This document shows positions 13,443 to 16,128 of a stretch of DNA of 64,000 bases, piece by piece. Position 1 is the first letter of the stretch. The number at the start of each line of letters is the position of its first letter. Location: assembly GCA_965223665.1 (NCBI GenBank), contig OZ245011.1:2432001-2496000 (forward strand), given 5' to 3'. Source of the stretch: Nitrospinaceae bacterium (lineage in GTDB: Bacteria; Nitrospinota; Nitrospinia; Nitrospinales; Nitrospinaceae). Under the pieces are notes generated by a model, which did no database searches, was not told the origin of the DNA, and saw nothing but the letters and a program-made list of their open reading frames with translations. The position numbers and the translations under genes are program-made.

Positions 13443-14222
13443 TTAACCTTTAAGCATGGCCAAGGTAATATTTCTTCCAGTTTGTCCTTCTTTCCTATAT
13501 GAATACCATCTTTCATTATTACAAGAAGTACACTCCCCAATTTGGAATATATTTTTTCTATTAATCCCCCTTTCCATGGCTTCCAATTGATTTATTTTTA
13601 ATAAATCTAACAAATATTTTTTAGAGGAGGTTTTTTCGGCAATATCTTTAAGGGGAAACGCCCTTTCTAAAAAGGGTTCAACACAAATTTCATCAACCTC
13701 ATAACATTGTTTGCATATTCCGGGTCCTATTCCCAAAACTAAATCTTTGGGAGAAGATCCAAACTTAAATACCATTTTACCAATGGTTTTGGATAAAATT
13801 TCATTCTGAGTTCCCACTCTCCCAGCATGAACAACTCCAATTACATGGCGCACCGGATCAAACAAAACAATGGGAATACAATCTGCGGTCATAATTGCAA
13901 TGGGAATTTGAGTTAGTTGAGTCACTATGGCATCTGCTTCGATTTGAGCCGTGACTTCGGGTAGAGTATTTCTATCTTGAAGAACATAAACTTGGTTACT
14001 ATGAATTTGATTTACGAAATGAATAATTTCACCCTGAATCTTTAGTGATTTCAAAAGCCATTTTTGATGCATTTGATTAATATTTTTTGTTCCAAGTCTT
14101 CCTAAATATAATGGAATAAAATCTTTATTAGAGGTATTAAAACTTCTTGGAGTGAAACAATGAAGTAAGTTTTCATGTTGTTTTAATTTATCAATAAAAT
14201 GAGTTTCAATGAAAAAATTCAT
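13443..14222 (-). CDS. pgeF: Peptidoglycan editing factor / YfiH-family purine nucleoside phosphorylase
   Basis: NQIHS, ADAIVT, TADCIP, HAGRVG, GPGICKQCYEV and SYR motifs. Confidence 0.88.
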   Translation of the reverse strand: MNFFIETHFIDKLKQHENLLHCFTPRSFNTSNKDFIPLYLGRLGTKNINQMHQKWLLKSLKIQGEIIHFVNQIHSNQVYVLQDRNTLPEVTAQIEADAIVTQLTQIPIAIMTADCIPIVLFDPVRHVIGVVHAGRVGTQNEILSKTIGKMVFKFGSSPKDLVLGIGPGICKQCYEVDEICVEPFLERAFPLKDIAEKTSSKKYLLDLLKINQLEAMERGINRKNIFQIGECTSCNNERWYSYRKEGQTGRNITLAMLKG

Positions 14223-14437
14223 AAAAAAATTTAATTTTTTTTTATTAATGAAAACGTAAACCTTTTGTTATATTTTTTTTTAACAAATAATTAAAAAATT
14301 TTTCAATACCCTGTTTCCGCCTTTATTGACAAGGGATTTTAAAGCATACGTATTTTAAATCATTTTTTTGGTTTTTTTTTAAAATTAATGACTAATTTCA
14401 ACAAAAACCCCTAACCCCTTTTTCAATCAATATTTTC

Positions 14438-14465
14438 TTGACATTAAGCGAGTATAGAATAAAAT
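14438..14465 (+). promoter_or_regulatory. Sigma70-type promoter of the H1-like gene
   Basis: TTGACA (14438-14443), 16-bp spacer, TAAAAT (14460-14465). Confidence 0.6.
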
Positions 14466-14521
14466 ACATACGATATTTGGGCGCTGAAACAAACCAAATA
14501 TTTTTTCGAAAGGAGTTCTTG

Positions 14522-14722
14522 ATGGCAACCAAGAAGAAAGCAAAAAAGAAAGCAGTAAAGAAAAAAGCTACAAAGAAAAAAGCAGTGAAAAAGAAAGTAG
14601 TAAAGAAAAAAGCTACAAAGAAAAAAGCAGTAAAAAAGAAAGCAGTAAAGAAAAAAGCTACAAAGAAAAAAGCAGTGAAAAAGAAAGCAACAAAAAAGAA
14701 AGCTGCCAAGAGAAAAAGATAA
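14522..14722 (+). CDS. Histone H1-like, Lys/Ala-rich nucleoid protein (66 aa)
   Basis: AGGAG RBS at 14511-14515 and ATG at 14522; 12 KKK blocks in (KKKAV/KKKAT) pentapeptide repeats; 40 of 66 residues K/R and none acidic. Confidence 0.8.
   Translation: MATKKKAKKKAVKKKATKKKAVKKKVVKKKATKKKAVKKKAVKKKATKKKAVKKKATKKKAAKRKR
14531..14710 (+). repeat. Degenerate 15-bp tandem repeat encoding KKKA[V/T]
   Basis: Units such as AAGAAAAAAGCTACA and AAGAAAAAAGCAGTA/G repeated about 11 times. Confidence 0.85.
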
Positions 14723-14916
14723 GTTTTTATTCTTGTAAAGCTTTTAATTTAATTTTTCATTTTCAAAATTATTCCTTTTTAAAAGGAAAATTTTTTTCAG
14801 AAATAAAATTGGTTTTGGATTCAGCGCCCAAAATAGCATTTTGTTTCCTGCCTCTCCTAACTCCTACAAATTAAATAATCAAAAGTTTCTTTTATTAATA
14901 CTTGCCGGAATCTTCT

Positions 14917-16128
14917 CTAACTTGTTATTTTACAATAGATTGCCTTCAAATAACCTCCCTCTTTAAAAATCACGGGGTGGTCAATTGGATGTTGAGTCTT
15001 AAGAATTTTTTCAAAAGTCCTTCCTGTTTGACGAATTCCCAAGTCCACTGCTCTGTAAAATTCCTTTGGGGTAATTAAAGAGGAGCAAGAAGCAGCAAAC
15101 AAAACCCCACCGGCTTGTGTGCAACTGGCTCCAAATTTGACTAATCGTATGTAGGCCTGAATTGCATTTTTTTTATTTTTTTTACTTTTGGCAAACGCAG
15201 GTGGGTCTAAAACAACCAAATCATACTTTTGATCTACTCTTTTCAATTCATGAAGTACTTTAAAAGCATCTCCTTGAATTTGTTGAAACCTCTCAGAATT
15301 TAAAAGCTGATTTCCAAAGTTTAAGTTAATATTTGCCCTTGATGCTTCCAAAGCATGCTTGTTTATTTCAATTTCAGTAACAGATTCACACTTTCCAGCA
15401 AAAGCATAAACAGAAAATCCTCCTGAGTAGCTAAATACGTTTAAAACATTACAACCAACAGACCTATCTTTAATTTGTCTACGGTTTTCTCGTTGGTCTA
15501 AAAAAAAACCGGTTTTTTGACCATGAATTATATCCGCTTCGAATAATAAACCGTTCTCTTTAAAAATAACGGGCCCTTCAATTAACGAACCAAATAAGAT
15601 TTGACCATTATAATACGAGCTTGTTTGCGTGCGTTCTACATGACCGCTAAATAATAAAACTAATCCTTCTAATTCCTTTATCTCTTGTTGGATTATTTCA
15701 GTTAATTGATCAAGATAGGGTATCCAGGCAGCGGTATAAATTTTTAAAGCCAATATATTTTCATAACGATCTAGTACCAGCCCAGGGAATCCGTCATTCT
15801 CGCCATTTAAAATTCGATAACCGGTAGTTCCATTCCCTTCTAATTCATCCCTTAAAATCAGGGCTTTTTTCAATCTTTCTTGAAAAAAAGCTCTATTAAT
15901 TTCTGTTGGTTTATTTGATTGAAGAATTCTAAGACGTATATCAGAGAAAGGATCATACAATCCAATAGCTAAAAAACGGTTATTTGAATCATAAACAACT
16001 CCTAAATCTCCTACCTTCCCTTCAACATTTATATTTTTTAATTGGTAATAGTAAACCCAAGGGTATCCCTTTTGTAATTTTCTTTGTAAGTTTTTTGAAA
16101 TTTGAATTTTTATTTTACCGGGTGTCAT
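14917..16128 (-). CDS. Class I SAM-dependent rRNA methyltransferase (RlmI/YwbD-like)
   Basis: PUA-like N-terminus (GYPWVY); GENDGFPGLVLDRY, GQKTGFFLDQRENR, VLNVFSYSGGFS and LDPPAF motifs. Confidence 0.9.
   Translation of the reverse strand: MTPGKIKIQISKNLQRKLQKGYPWVYYYQLKNINVEGKVGDLGVVYDSNNRFLAIGLYDPFSDIRLRILQSNKPTEINRAFFQERLKKALILRDELEGNGTTGYRILNGENDGFPGLVLDRYENILALKIYTAAWIPYLDQLTEIIQQEIKELEGLVLLFSGHVERTQTSSYYNGQILFGSLIEGPVIFKENGLLFEADIIHGQKTGFFLDQRENRRQIKDRSVGCNVLNVFSYSGGFSVYAFAGKCESVTEIEINKHALEASRANINLNFGNQLLNSERFQQIQGDAFKVLHELKRVDQKYDLVVLDPPAFAKSKKNKKNAIQAYIRLVKFGASCTQAGGVLFAASCSSLITPKEFYRAVDLGIRQTGRTFEKILKTQHPIDHPVIFKEGGYLKAIYCKITS

Follow-up and report, generated by a model that had tools for sequence, protein, structure and literature searches.

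The two ends of a short mRNA that encodes a small lysine-rich protein in marine nitrite-oxidizing bacteria of the order Nitrospinales most likely pair with each other and control the fate of the message. What is observed is complementarity between the two ends, conservation and covariation of the complementary segments, and a thermodynamic preference for the long-range helix. With moderate confidence, we read the element as a cis-acting, long-range 5′/3′-UTR RNA-RNA interaction within one mRNA that would govern its stability or processing. All coordinates refer to the window, that is, the whole 64,000-nucleotide stretch of Nitrospinaceae DNA that was analysed.

Architecture of the locus and its inverted repeat

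The gene lies on the plus strand behind a sigma-70-type promoter (14438..14465), in which a −35 element TTGACA (14438-14443) and a −10 element TAAAAT (14460-14465) are separated by a 16-nt spacer and 11 of 12 positions agree with the consensus, bearing out the promoter called in the initial annotation. As judged from this promoter, transcription would start at about 14471-14473. Folding of the leader on its own predicts a hairpin at the 5′ terminus of the mRNA (14472..14502), with a stem formed by 14472-14480 and 14494-14502 and a loop (14481-14493) of sequence GCGCTGAAACAAA. The Shine-Dalgarno (SD) sequence AAAGGAG is found at 14509..14515, 6 nt upstream of the ATG, in a region where AAGGA and TCTTGATGGC are invariant or nearly so across the alignment. 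The ORF (14522..14722, from the ATG at 14522 through a TAA ending at 14722) encodes 66 residues rich in Lys, Ala, Thr, and Val. Downstream of the ORF, the repeat search and the terminator scan both pick up a local A/U-rich hairpin followed by a T-run on the plus strand (TTCCTTTT / AAAAGGAA; 14765..14797, with arms at 14765-14779 and 14781-14795), which lies upstream of the 3′ arm described below, looks like a weak terminator, and matches the local 3′-UTR hairpin proposed earlier. The adjoining genes in the window encode a YfiH-like protein and, convergently on the minus strand (14917..16128), an RlmI-like SAM-dependent RNA methyltransferase (PF10672, 5.1e-25; PF17785, 4.4e-15) with PUA and Methyltrans_SAM domains, which is outside the element.

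A 13-mer, TTTGGGCGCTGAA, at 14476-14488 and its exact reverse complement at 14820-14832 flank the ORF, as the initial annotation had noted; the second copy starts 98 nt past the stop codon. In the repeat search, the arms lengthen to 14476-14493 and 14815-14832 (18 nt, 89%), and the imperfect inward pairing that had also been claimed is seen as a continuation between 14491-14511 and 14795-14815 (21 nt, 76%). On the plus strand, the 5′ strand of the predicted long-range helix thus spans 14473..14520, including an imperfect, A/U-rich continuation into the SD region, and its 3′ strand spans 14790..14835. The 3′ arm has an alternative local partner on the same strand, a hairpin of GTTTTGG and CCAAAAT (14812..14846; 14812-14818 with 14828-14834, then AGCATTTTGTTT) that would hold part of the arm in its loop and is terminator-like in appearance. 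When 14470-14840 is folded with RNAfold, the two arms close the molecule, with a minimum free energy (MFE) of −74.4 kcal/mol as against a shuffle mean of −54.15 kcal/mol (sd 4.27, z = −4.74), and none of 100 shuffles folds as stably. In the MFE structure, 14476-14488, 14490-14497, 14499-14505, and part of 14508-14520 pair with 14790-14832; of the 5′ strand, only about 14474-14491 is conserved as paired throughout the order.

Taken alone, the window provides modest evidence against a chance origin: it holds a single exact inverted repeat of 13 nt with 7 or more G/C within 500 nt, whereas 100 first-order Markov resamples contain such repeats at a mean of 0.09 and a maximum of 2. It is the comparison with relatives, in which the feature is conserved, that takes it beyond chance. 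The arm is no dispersed repeat, as these two are its only exact copies in the 4.35-Mb genome and sites with one mismatch number 3, versus 5 for a reversed-pattern control. A search against the Rfam 15 covariance models returned only 5 matches, with E-values of 1.5-5.8, all far below the gathering scores.

Conservation and covariation of the complementary ends

The gene, together with its promoter and leader, is present in 81 of 120 genomes of the phylum and in 48 of the 57 high-quality ones, mostly as one match per genome, and every match falls within four families of one order (Nitrospinales, Nitrospinota). Both arms are retained in 110 of 113 unique complete K-rich loci, a total that becomes 114 if one frameshifted, arm-bearing locus is counted. 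Of the unique complete loci from genomes, 58 of 60 carry a complementary 3′ arm; metagenome contigs add another 54 unique K-rich loci, of which 52 carry one, and three K-rich loci (L087, L147, and L225) have the leader without a full 3′ arm. Among the 80 of 110 metagenome matches listed, every contig is longer than 1 kb, so these contigs look like DNA assemblies; they were used only as extra sequence variants.

The layout of the locus is conserved as well. All 58 unique related elements have a −35/16-nt/−10 promoter in the corresponding position, with 13-18 nt between the end of the −10 element and the GGG of the core, which would place the 5′ arm right at the start of the transcript. The 3′ arm follows the stop codon at a distance of 37-126 nt, and the distance between the arms ranges from 141 to 475 nt, varying with the number of repeats in the ORF. 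In 47 of 47 loci, a convergent ORF ends 30-157 nt past the arm, its C terminus being recognizable in most of them (not counted) as that of the RlmI-like methyltransferase, and the same neighbors recur in all four families. A synteny search of outgroups found a methyltransferase homologue in 2 of 5 genomes from other orders, with no K-rich gene next to it in either; five outgroup genomes are too small a sample for dating the origin of the element.

To describe the pairing itself, we used an alignment of 58 sequences and 17 helix pairs (A3). In this alignment, 92.0% of the cells are paired, compared with 31-47% when the partner strand is slid by 1-3 columns; both sides have changed in 8 of the 17 pairs, and the observed covariation score is reached by none of 500 shuffles. 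A second alignment (A1) gives the same picture. The helix is continuous, G+C-rich, and 16-17 bp long across the 110 unique elements, and it is longer, with bulges, in this genome than in the minimal clades. Over 16 positions in these 110 elements, there are 1601 Watson-Crick cells, 67 G-T, 4 A-C, and 88 other; because G-U is tolerated only if the plus-strand RNA pairs, the excess of G-T over A-C argues for RNA pairing rather than for a DNA repeat. Within the 9-bp core, G-C has changed to A-T in genera g17 and g18 (6 loci). G024, L082, and 2 metagenome loci have T-A in place of C-G at one position, and g21 has it at another; in G036 the arms differ at two positions and still pair through two G-U, as a double G-T intermediate. 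When full-length sequences are folded, all 9 core pairs are present in the MFE structure in 45 of 45 cases, with a mean pair probability of at least 0.96.

It should be noted that 986 of the 990 cells of the 9-bp core in the 110 elements are Watson-Crick because there is so little variation in it; the pairing signal thus stems mostly from conservation of the sequence as such, and compensatory events in the core that can be counted as independent amount to no more than about four or five. The near-invariance of the core suggests a further constraint (a protein, a nuclease, or the local hairpin) that the end-pairing model leaves unexplained. Nevertheless, the proposal of paired mRNA ends with the ORF looped out between them is supported by the retention of the arms, the covarying pairs, and the G-U bias taken together, and the repeat proves to be neither absent nor non-covarying in relatives.

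Possible modes of action

The 5′ arm consists of the loop and the 5′ strand of the hairpin predicted at the very 5′ end of the transcript. According to single-sequence folds, on which the local hairpin rests, such a hairpin with the conserved core in its loop is formed in the MFE structures of most of 47 leaders (∼44 by eye); the leaders of L024, L027, and L084 fold differently. A similar hairpin is predicted in the divergent clades g20, g8, g21, and part of g17. The stem sequence and its register vary between clades, and, because of the differing register, RNAalifold run on a MAFFT alignment of the leaders recovered only 4 pairs of the hairpin. In this structural model, the local hairpin would form first during transcription and would compete with the long-range helix.

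We envisage a transcript that would begin a few nucleotides upstream of the 5′-terminal hairpin, whose loop and 5′ stem strand (core GGGCGCTGAAAC) would pair with the complementary element past the stop codon (core GTTTCAGCGCCC). The resulting helix, of 16-17 bp and extended in some clades, this genome among them, would tie the ends into a panhandle. It would hide the 5′ end from 5′-end-dependent nucleases (RNase E/G, RNase Y) and present 3′ exonucleases with a stable barrier; the genome carries one RNase III gene, two RNase E/G genes, and one RNase Y gene. In cells, the ends probably pair, and this would affect mRNA stability, a stabilizing role of the helix being proposed by analogy.

A bolder variant, which we consider rather unlikely, is a bacterial device for mRNA circularization, in which the apical loop of the 5′ hairpin would contact the 3′-terminal element to form a closed ring. 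Ribosomes that reach the end of the very short ORF would then be passed back to the SD, or termination and decay would be coupled to a free 5′ end, and the nearly invariant 12-nt core would be read by a lineage-specific protein or nuclease. In some clades, the 3′-terminal element would itself be the loop of a terminator hairpin.

Alternatively, the paired ends might be a substrate for RNase III, which would either mature the mRNA, in the manner of rRNA or phage T7 stalks, or destroy it, in the manner of icaR, for which the relevant part of a review (PMC7821165) offers a precedent; we assign this a low probability. A continuous G+C-rich duplex is present in all clades, and much longer, with bulges, here; the genome encodes an RNase III; and processing could define the 3′ end in the 29 of 58 elements in which a crude scan recognizes no terminator. 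RNase III sites typically span roughly two helical turns, however, and the duplex of the minimal clades is shorter than that, while a simple cleavage site leaves the conserved local 5′ hairpin unexplained.

Whether the stem also governs translation depends on how far it extends towards the SD. In the window's MFE structure, the helix continues over the SD, and the predicted accessibility of the SD and AUG in this locus (L110) is 0.32 with the 3′ arm compared with 0.51 without it, as would suit a hok-type lock, in which the closed full-length mRNA is inert until slow 3′ trimming frees the 5′ arm, so that the local hairpin forms and translation can begin. The two mutually exclusive partners of the 5′ element, one local and one distal, likewise follow the tac/fbi/ucb logic of that system, and L024, L027, and L084 show strong covariation in their clade-specific extensions towards the SD. 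We nevertheless regard such a lock as unlikely, as occlusion of the SD is not conserved: over 58 loci, mean predicted accessibility is 0.54 when the arm is present and 0.55 when it is absent, falling by more than 0.15 in only 4 loci (the window included) and rising in 2. Pairing past the 16-17-bp core is clade-specific, 19 of 47 loci having a cognate extension that outperforms 90% or more of the non-cognate ones, and the large clades g6 and g22 have no cognate extension beyond the core. Moreover, the product is a hydrophilic poly-Lys/Ala protein and no small hydrophobic toxin, and no conserved antisense promoter was seen, the one 9/12 site on the minus strand (14528-14500) being within chance expectation (3 sites found, 5.2 expected). 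By eye, the −10-like part of that site is not conserved in g6 leaders.

The earlier suggestion that the stem reaches the ribosome-binding site thus holds for this genus and a few other clades but not in general. The anti-SD role proposed for ATTCCTTT (14771-14778) is confined to this genus, and no anti-SD in the 3′ UTR is conserved beyond single clades; the predicted accessibilities do not support a translation switch as a conserved feature.

In the end-pairing model, the 3′ arm would be carried on the same transcript as the ORF. The crude scan places a terminator-like hairpin with a T-run past the stop codon but upstream of the 3′ arm in 17 of 58 elements, including the window, and terminator-like sites after or around the arm are also found in 17 of 58 (11 after, 6 containing the arm), the two groups overlapping; a strict scan of 14000-15300 returned no terminator. 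Because terminator-like sites can precede the arm, the arm may be present only on read-through transcripts in some clades. Candidate RNA-seq runs gave shares of at most 0.20, and four RNA runs yielded only short contigs on low-complexity Lys-codon repeats, many of them from other organisms; for contig X1 (225 nt, 14602-14825, depth 2.4), an RNA origin is a guess only.

These sites bring up the possibility that the 3′ arm is part of a terminator, either as the loop or a strand of a local hairpin or as one strand of a "giant-loop" structure with the 5′ arm as the other; pairing with the 5′ arm would in that case tune termination or read-through into the convergent methyltransferase gene. In g17, the whole arm sits in the loop of an 8-bp hairpin with a T-run directly after it; the L027 arm pairs with a second copy of the 5′-arm sequence, located downstream of it and ahead of T6; and an arm in or before a terminator-like hairpin is seen also in the L040/L080 group, L055, and L033. 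The window has its local hairpin and T-rich tail (14812-14846), and in 23 of the 58 elements, 5 or more T in 7 nt occur no further than 22 nt past the core. We hold termination to be a very unlikely function all the same, since the two largest clades (g2 and g6) have no T-tract past the arm, only 6 of 58 elements have a terminator-like hairpin containing it, and a terminator needs no complementarity to the 5′ leader, which is precisely the feature that is conserved.

The arms might also act unpaired, each as a copy of the same recognition motif (either a pair of DNA operators or a motif in RNA, on the plus-strand leader and the minus-strand 3′ UTR of the methyltransferase mRNA), or the 3′ arm might belong to a separate small RNA. 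A core that is nearly invariant in sequence is unusual for a helix that needs only to pair, and the convergent gene ends close enough to the arm that its transcript may cross it. Motif copies or a DNA repeat would lack the mismatch bias (G-T 67, A-C 4), however, and would not account for the G036 arms that pair despite differing; arm spacing tracks the ORF repeat number, and no conserved promoter was seen by eye between the stop codon and the arm. Together, these points make the unpaired reading very doubtful. Finally, a MITE-like or invertible cassette with the arms as terminal inverted repeats, raised in the initial annotation and in keeping with an inverted repeat around a short, repeat-rich gene, is rejected as highly implausible because the element is essentially single-copy, its synteny is conserved across four families, and its mismatch bias is of the RNA type; nor do the window ORFs and Pfam domains include an adjacent recombinase.

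Relation to known systems and significance

The encoded protein begins MATKKKAKKK and is specified by an ORF made of 15-nt and 45-nt repeats; its orthologues are 20-116 residues long with 46-68% Lys+Arg. It had been called H1-like, and its composition does resemble a histone H1 tail, but no Pfam or NCBIfam family matches: the Pfam search returned no family at E-values up to 1, the best NCBIfam E-values are 4.1 and 6.3 (the latter for hist_H1_lk_Burk, at 7 bits against a cut-off of 80), and the histone H1-like/HC2 profiles (PF07382; NF038053) give no match above cut-off. A PDB search found no solved relatives, the Atlas neighbors are K-rich "hypothetical proteins" without names, exact look-up of three orthologues in the protein collection returned none of them, and a literature search on Nitrospina with histone or transcriptome gave nothing relevant among the records listed.

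The nearest known counterpart is the hbs mRNA of B. subtilis, as described in part of the report by Braun, Durand and Condon 2017 (PMC5737220), where a 5′-UTR stretch is fully complementary to the 3′ UTR over 14 bp, the pairing limits endonuclease cleavage in the leader and affects 3′ decay, and it was proven in vivo by mutation and compensation. As far as that account goes, both systems combine complementary 5′- and 3′-UTR stretches, here on a predicted short monocistronic mRNA, with a small and basic gene product (the nucleoid protein HBsu in the case of hbs), and the highly structured leader and strong SD of hbs can be counted as a shared trait. In contrast to the in vivo mutants of hbs, the Nitrospinales element is known from sequence comparison; its protein is low-complexity Lys/Ala and unrelated to HU; and its 5′ partner is the loop and stem strand of a 5′-terminal hairpin, whereas the hbs partner is described as lying downstream of hairpin 2. 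It is also kept across four families of an order, whereas, in the relevant sections of a review (PMC7821165), the hbs 3′ UTR is said not to be conserved among close relatives, as holds for the functional 3′ UTRs treated there in general.

The same sections of that review (PMC7821165) describe the S. aureus icaR 3′ UTR, a species-specific element that pairs with the ribosome-binding site through a UCCCC anti-SD motif and blocks initiation. Here too, a 3′-UTR element would pair with its own 5′ UTR in a duplex that could be an RNase III substrate, but, compared with icaR as portrayed there, the pairing that is conserved falls 20-35 nt ahead of the SD. The tac/fbi end-pairing scheme of hok is outlined in part of a paper on type I toxin-antitoxin loci (PMC9841398). 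As in that outline, the extreme 5′ end would pair with the 3′ end, and the same 5′ element may form a local hairpin. Unlike hok, the Nitrospinales element shows no conserved SD sequestration, its product has 46-68% Lys+Arg instead of being a hydrophobic toxin, and a search that was not exhaustive found no antisense RNA. The hok end-pairing element, likewise, is reportedly backed by covariation across homologues, in original work by Franch and Gerdes. The RNase III processing stalks of rRNA and phage T7 are also long-range stems, built from complementary sequences on either side of a functional RNA segment, but they are usually longer and their cleavage has been demonstrated; here, the stem is predicted.

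The known bacterial 5′/3′-UTR interactions are few (hld/RNAIII, icaR, and hbs) and were found gene by gene. With its complementary segments and compensatory changes, the Nitrospinales element appears to be of this kind. It is deeply conserved, over four families and more than 100 natural sequence variants, and joins a core that is almost fixed to extensions confined to particular clades and to alternative local hairpins; the variants are a ready-made mutational series on what end-pairing does for a bacterial mRNA. The element further draws attention to a small basic protein, unannotated and probably abundant, of the main marine nitrite oxidizers. If stabilizing the message is all that the pairing does, the element would be a neat RNA motif of a new sort; were the pairing to close the mRNA so that ribosomes are recycled or termination is controlled, this would amount to a novel way of regulating a gene; and, should circularization prove true, this would be the first deeply conserved, order-wide closed-loop mRNA in bacteria.

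A lysine-rich ORF between complementary arms

The 13-mer TTTGGGCGCTGAA (14476–14488, the 5′ arm) and its exact reverse complement 98 nt past the stop codon (14820–14832, the 3′ arm) enclose a short ORF, as the initial annotation had described, with imperfect complementarity continuing inward of the arms (14491–14511 with 14795–14815). The near-consensus promoter it had proposed (TTGACA, 16 nt, TAAAAT; 14438–14465) matches at 11 of 12 positions and is followed by a strong Shine-Dalgarno (SD) sequence, AAAGGAG (14509–14515), and by 66 codons from the ATG at 14522 to the TAA at 14722, beginning MATKKKAKKKAVKKK and made up of 15- and 45-nt repeats. The element is flanked by − strand genes for a YfiH-like protein (13443–14222) and a convergent RlmI-like methyltransferase (14917–16128). 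The arm is no dispersed repeat, the only exact copies in the 4.35-Mb genome being the two at this locus; judged from the window alone, the arm repeat is only mildly unusual (one 13-mer inverted repeat with at least seven G/C observed, 0.09 expected). Two other exact 14-nt inverted repeats in the window, both A/T-rich with partners less than 500 nt apart (55795–55808/56254–56267, GCTTTTCATTTTGT; 62071–62084/62202–62215, TGAATATAAAAGCG), are not clearly above chance (eight 13-mer pairs of this class, against 2.8 on average and at most 11 in resamples). A promoter-like site on the − strand (14528–14500; TTGCCA, 17 nt, AAAAAT; 9 of 12 positions), from which transcription would yield an RNA antisense to the 5′ arm, shows no excess over chance; its −35-like part is complementary to the conserved start region (ATGGCAA), and leaders of genus g6 have not kept its −10-like part.

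No protein family was found for the product in Pfam, NCBIfam or the PDB, so its description as "H1-like" holds as a statement on composition (Lys + Arg is 46–68% among elements) and not as a family assignment. The closest Atlas clusters are unnamed lysine-rich hypothetical proteins, and one distant cluster carries PF07382 (HC2) on 17% of its members. The case for coding is that the SD and ATG are conserved, that the MATK start is invariant, and that the same residues are encoded by differing codons (alignments judged by eye; e.g., Arg by CGN as well as AGR in g2 orthologues). The ORF is 20 to 116 aa long, depending on the element. Assemblies often break in the ORF, which runs off the contig end in 23 of 110 metagenome stretches and contains N-runs in several loci; its repeat copy number may be hypervariable, or else poorly assembled.

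Conservation and probable pairing of the mRNA ends

A DNA search recovered promoter, leader and ORF in 39 of 41 relatives, and the pattern of leader core, SD and start codon was found in 53 stretches of species-representative genomes, 50 of them Nitrospina or Nitrospinota by name and the other three a "Nitrospirota" MAG, a "Thermoproteota" MAG and an "uncultured bacterium". A covariance model of the leader has matches, mostly one per genome, in 81 of the 120 genomes searched from the phylum, and in 48 of the 57 that are of high quality (family f1, 18/20; f2, 52/70; f3, 6/6; f4, 4/5), and in 0 of 18 genomes from other orders. All 58 unique elements have the promoter, always with a 16-nt spacer, and because the −10 ends 13–18 nt before the GGG of the core (i.e., the near-invariant 9 bp of the arm-arm helix), the 5′ arm lies at the extreme 5′ end of the inferred transcript. 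Although the distance between arms varies from 141 to 475 nt, the 3′ arm stays 37–126 nt past the stop codon, and a convergent ORF, its C terminus recognizable as the methyltransferase in most cases, ends 30–157 nt beyond the arm in 47 of 47 loci examined.

The repeat is both kept and covarying in related genomes. A complementary 3′ core is present in 58 of 60 unique complete loci from genomes, and a perfectly complementary one in 52 of 55 new unique metagenome sequences (from 110 stretches, 62 of them complete). Locus L013 has a 3′ arm and a frameshifted ORF; L200 was rejected as a false match, its gene not being lysine-rich. L087 (on an oddly labelled contig, with no 3′ arm) and the metagenome loci L147 and L225 (without a complementary 3′ core) combine the conserved leader and a lysine-rich ORF with the loss of a full 3′ arm: in L225, a 7-nt arm remnant directly past the stop codon precedes a strong G+C-rich terminator, and in L087 and L147, which may be rearranged or chimeric contigs, the downstream DNA is unrelated.

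In an alignment of 58 elements, 92.0% of the cells of a 17-pair helix are paired, compared with only 31–47% when the 3′ partner is shifted by 1–3 columns; eight pairs have changed on both sides, and none of 500 column shuffles reached the real alignment in paired fraction, in double-change counts or in covariation score. An alignment of 47 sequences gave the same result. Of 990 core cells, 986 are Watson-Crick and 4 G-T, so that the core hardly varies, and where it does the changes come on both sides of the helix: GAGCGCTGA with TCAGCGCTC in genera g17 and g18 (six loci), GGGCGTTGA with TCAACGCCC in g21, and GGGTGCTGA with TCAGCACCC in G024, L082 and two metagenome loci, with an intermediate form carrying two G-T pairs in G036; the sequences are related, and independent core events number only ∼4–5, with more in the flanks. 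Non-Watson-Crick cells at 16 helix positions in 110 elements are G-T in 67 cases and A-C in 4, a bias expected of pairing in + strand RNA and not of a DNA repeat, of a protein site present twice or of a − strand RNA.

Folded as RNA, 14470–14840 is closed by the arms (−74.4 kcal/mol, z = −4.74), with 0 of 100 shuffles folding as well, and each of 45 full-length folds examined (45 of 45) has the nine core pairs in its minimum free energy (MFE) structure, their mean probability being 0.96 or higher. At the RNA level, the proposed pairing of the mRNA ends is well supported by the comparative data. Pairing alone does not explain the near-invariance of the core, which may reflect the threefold demand of serving in the local stem, in the loop and with the distal partner or, alternatively, recognition by a protein or nuclease.

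A predicted local 5′ hairpin and the ribosome-binding site

Folded alone, most of 47 leaders (∼44, counted by eye) form a 5′ hairpin that starts at most 1–3 nt from the inferred 5′ end and holds the conserved core in a 10–15-nt loop (in the window, 14472–14480 pairs with 14494–14502). The divergent clades g20, g8, g21 and part of g17 have a similar hairpin; L024, L027 and L084 fold differently. Stem sequence and register vary by clade (AAATATTTGG/CCAAATATTT, CGGTATTTG/CGAATACCG, AAAAAATTGG/CCAGTTTTTT, the non-Watson-Crick pairs being T-G), and a MAFFT-based consensus therefore recovers just four hairpin pairs. The loop includes CTGA, which would conform to YUNR, the "U-turn" motif of antisense loops that pair fast. 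The 3′ arm is thus complementary to the loop and 5′ strand of this hairpin; local hairpin and long-range helix would be alternatives, or would begin with the loop contacting the 3′ UTR.

Past the core, pairing differs by clade: in 19 of 47 loci, the cognate extension outperforms 90% or more of the non-cognate ones (these loci include the window's genus, g2, g3 and g4, and, very strongly, L024, L027 and L084), and clades g6, g22 and g9 show no extension of this kind. The initial annotation had the stem reaching the ribosome-binding site as a translation switch. Such a reach is predicted in the window, where an A/U-rich continuation of the helix extends to the SD in the MFE structure and predicted SD+AUG accessibility is 0.32 with the arm versus 0.51 without, but this reading is not conserved: the means are 0.54 and 0.55, and of 58 loci 4 (the window's among them) show a fall exceeding 0.15 and 2 an increase. 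In general, SD+AUG accessibility is thus predicted to be independent of the 3′ arm.

Two local variations involve further partners. L027 and L084 carry a copy of the 5′-arm sequence just past the 3′ arm (TTTGGGCG in L027) that pairs with the 3′ half of that arm, which therefore has a further partner close by, one mimicking the 5′ arm; in L027, the resulting hairpin is followed by T6. Four g6 loci (L023, L025, L029 and L031) have TCAAGAT directly past the stop codon, complementary to ATCTTGA, the last bases ahead of the ATG plus its first base; this is a possible second 5′/3′ contact, which would enclose precisely the ORF, and TCAAGAT might just as well form one side of a small local hairpin (TCAA...TTGA).

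Transcript ends and a proposed role of the pairing

The location of the transcript end is the weak point of the analysis. In our own crude scan of 58 elements, in which the groups overlap, a terminator-like hairpin with a T-run lies between stop codon and arm in 17 (including g2, part of g17 and the window's weak A/U hairpin at 14765–14797), contains the arm in 6, lies past it in 11, and is absent in 29; a stricter scan of 14000–15300 found no terminator. The arm appears to be clearly inside the transcript in g17, where it forms the loop of an 8-bp hairpin immediately followed by a T-run, in the L040/L080 group, where a strong hairpin and T-run lie ∼25 nt beyond it, and likewise in L055, L033 and L027. 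The window has a local hairpin comparable to that of g17 (14812–14818 with 14828–14834, then AGCATTTTGTTT). In g2 (L008–L021), the first 30 nt past the stop hold a 5–6 bp hairpin (CGGT...ACCG) that starts from the stop codon itself, its stem covarying between species and a T6–8 run following 2–4 nt later; the arm may therefore be reached there only by read-through, and, as a terminating ribosome would cover the hairpin, termination at this site could be translation-dependent.

The reading with the best support is a cis-acting 5′/3′-UTR interaction that would tie the ends of the short mRNA together and so govern its decay or processing, a function that we infer. Among ribonucleases, the genome has genes for RNase III, RNase Y and two RNase E/G paralogues, and none for an RNase J above cut-off. 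Of the cases studied experimentally, the nearest is the B. subtilis hbs mRNA, whose 14-bp 5′/3′ interaction, proved by compensatory mutants, restrains RNase Y from cleaving the leader and also influences the 3′ decay pathway (PMC5737220). Two rival readings are possible, namely that the arm-arm duplex is an RNase III site, as the initial annotation also suggested and as is described for icaR (PMC7821165), and that the arms act in termination. The suggested likeness to type I toxin mRNAs is incomplete: as in the tac/fbi/ucb switch of hok mRNA (PMC9841398), the 5′ element would alternate between a local hairpin and a 3′-end partner, but the defining SD sequestration, an antisense RNA and a hydrophobic toxin were not found. 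DNA-level explanations, including an invertible or MITE-like cassette, are contradicted by the G-T bias, by the element being single-copy and by its conserved synteny.

No Rfam family matches the element, and we found no earlier description of it in the open-access literature, which cannot prove absence. Bacterial mRNAs with pairing 5′ and 3′ UTRs are known from a handful of species-specific cases; the Nitrospinales element appears to be new, and it is order-wide and supported by natural covariation.
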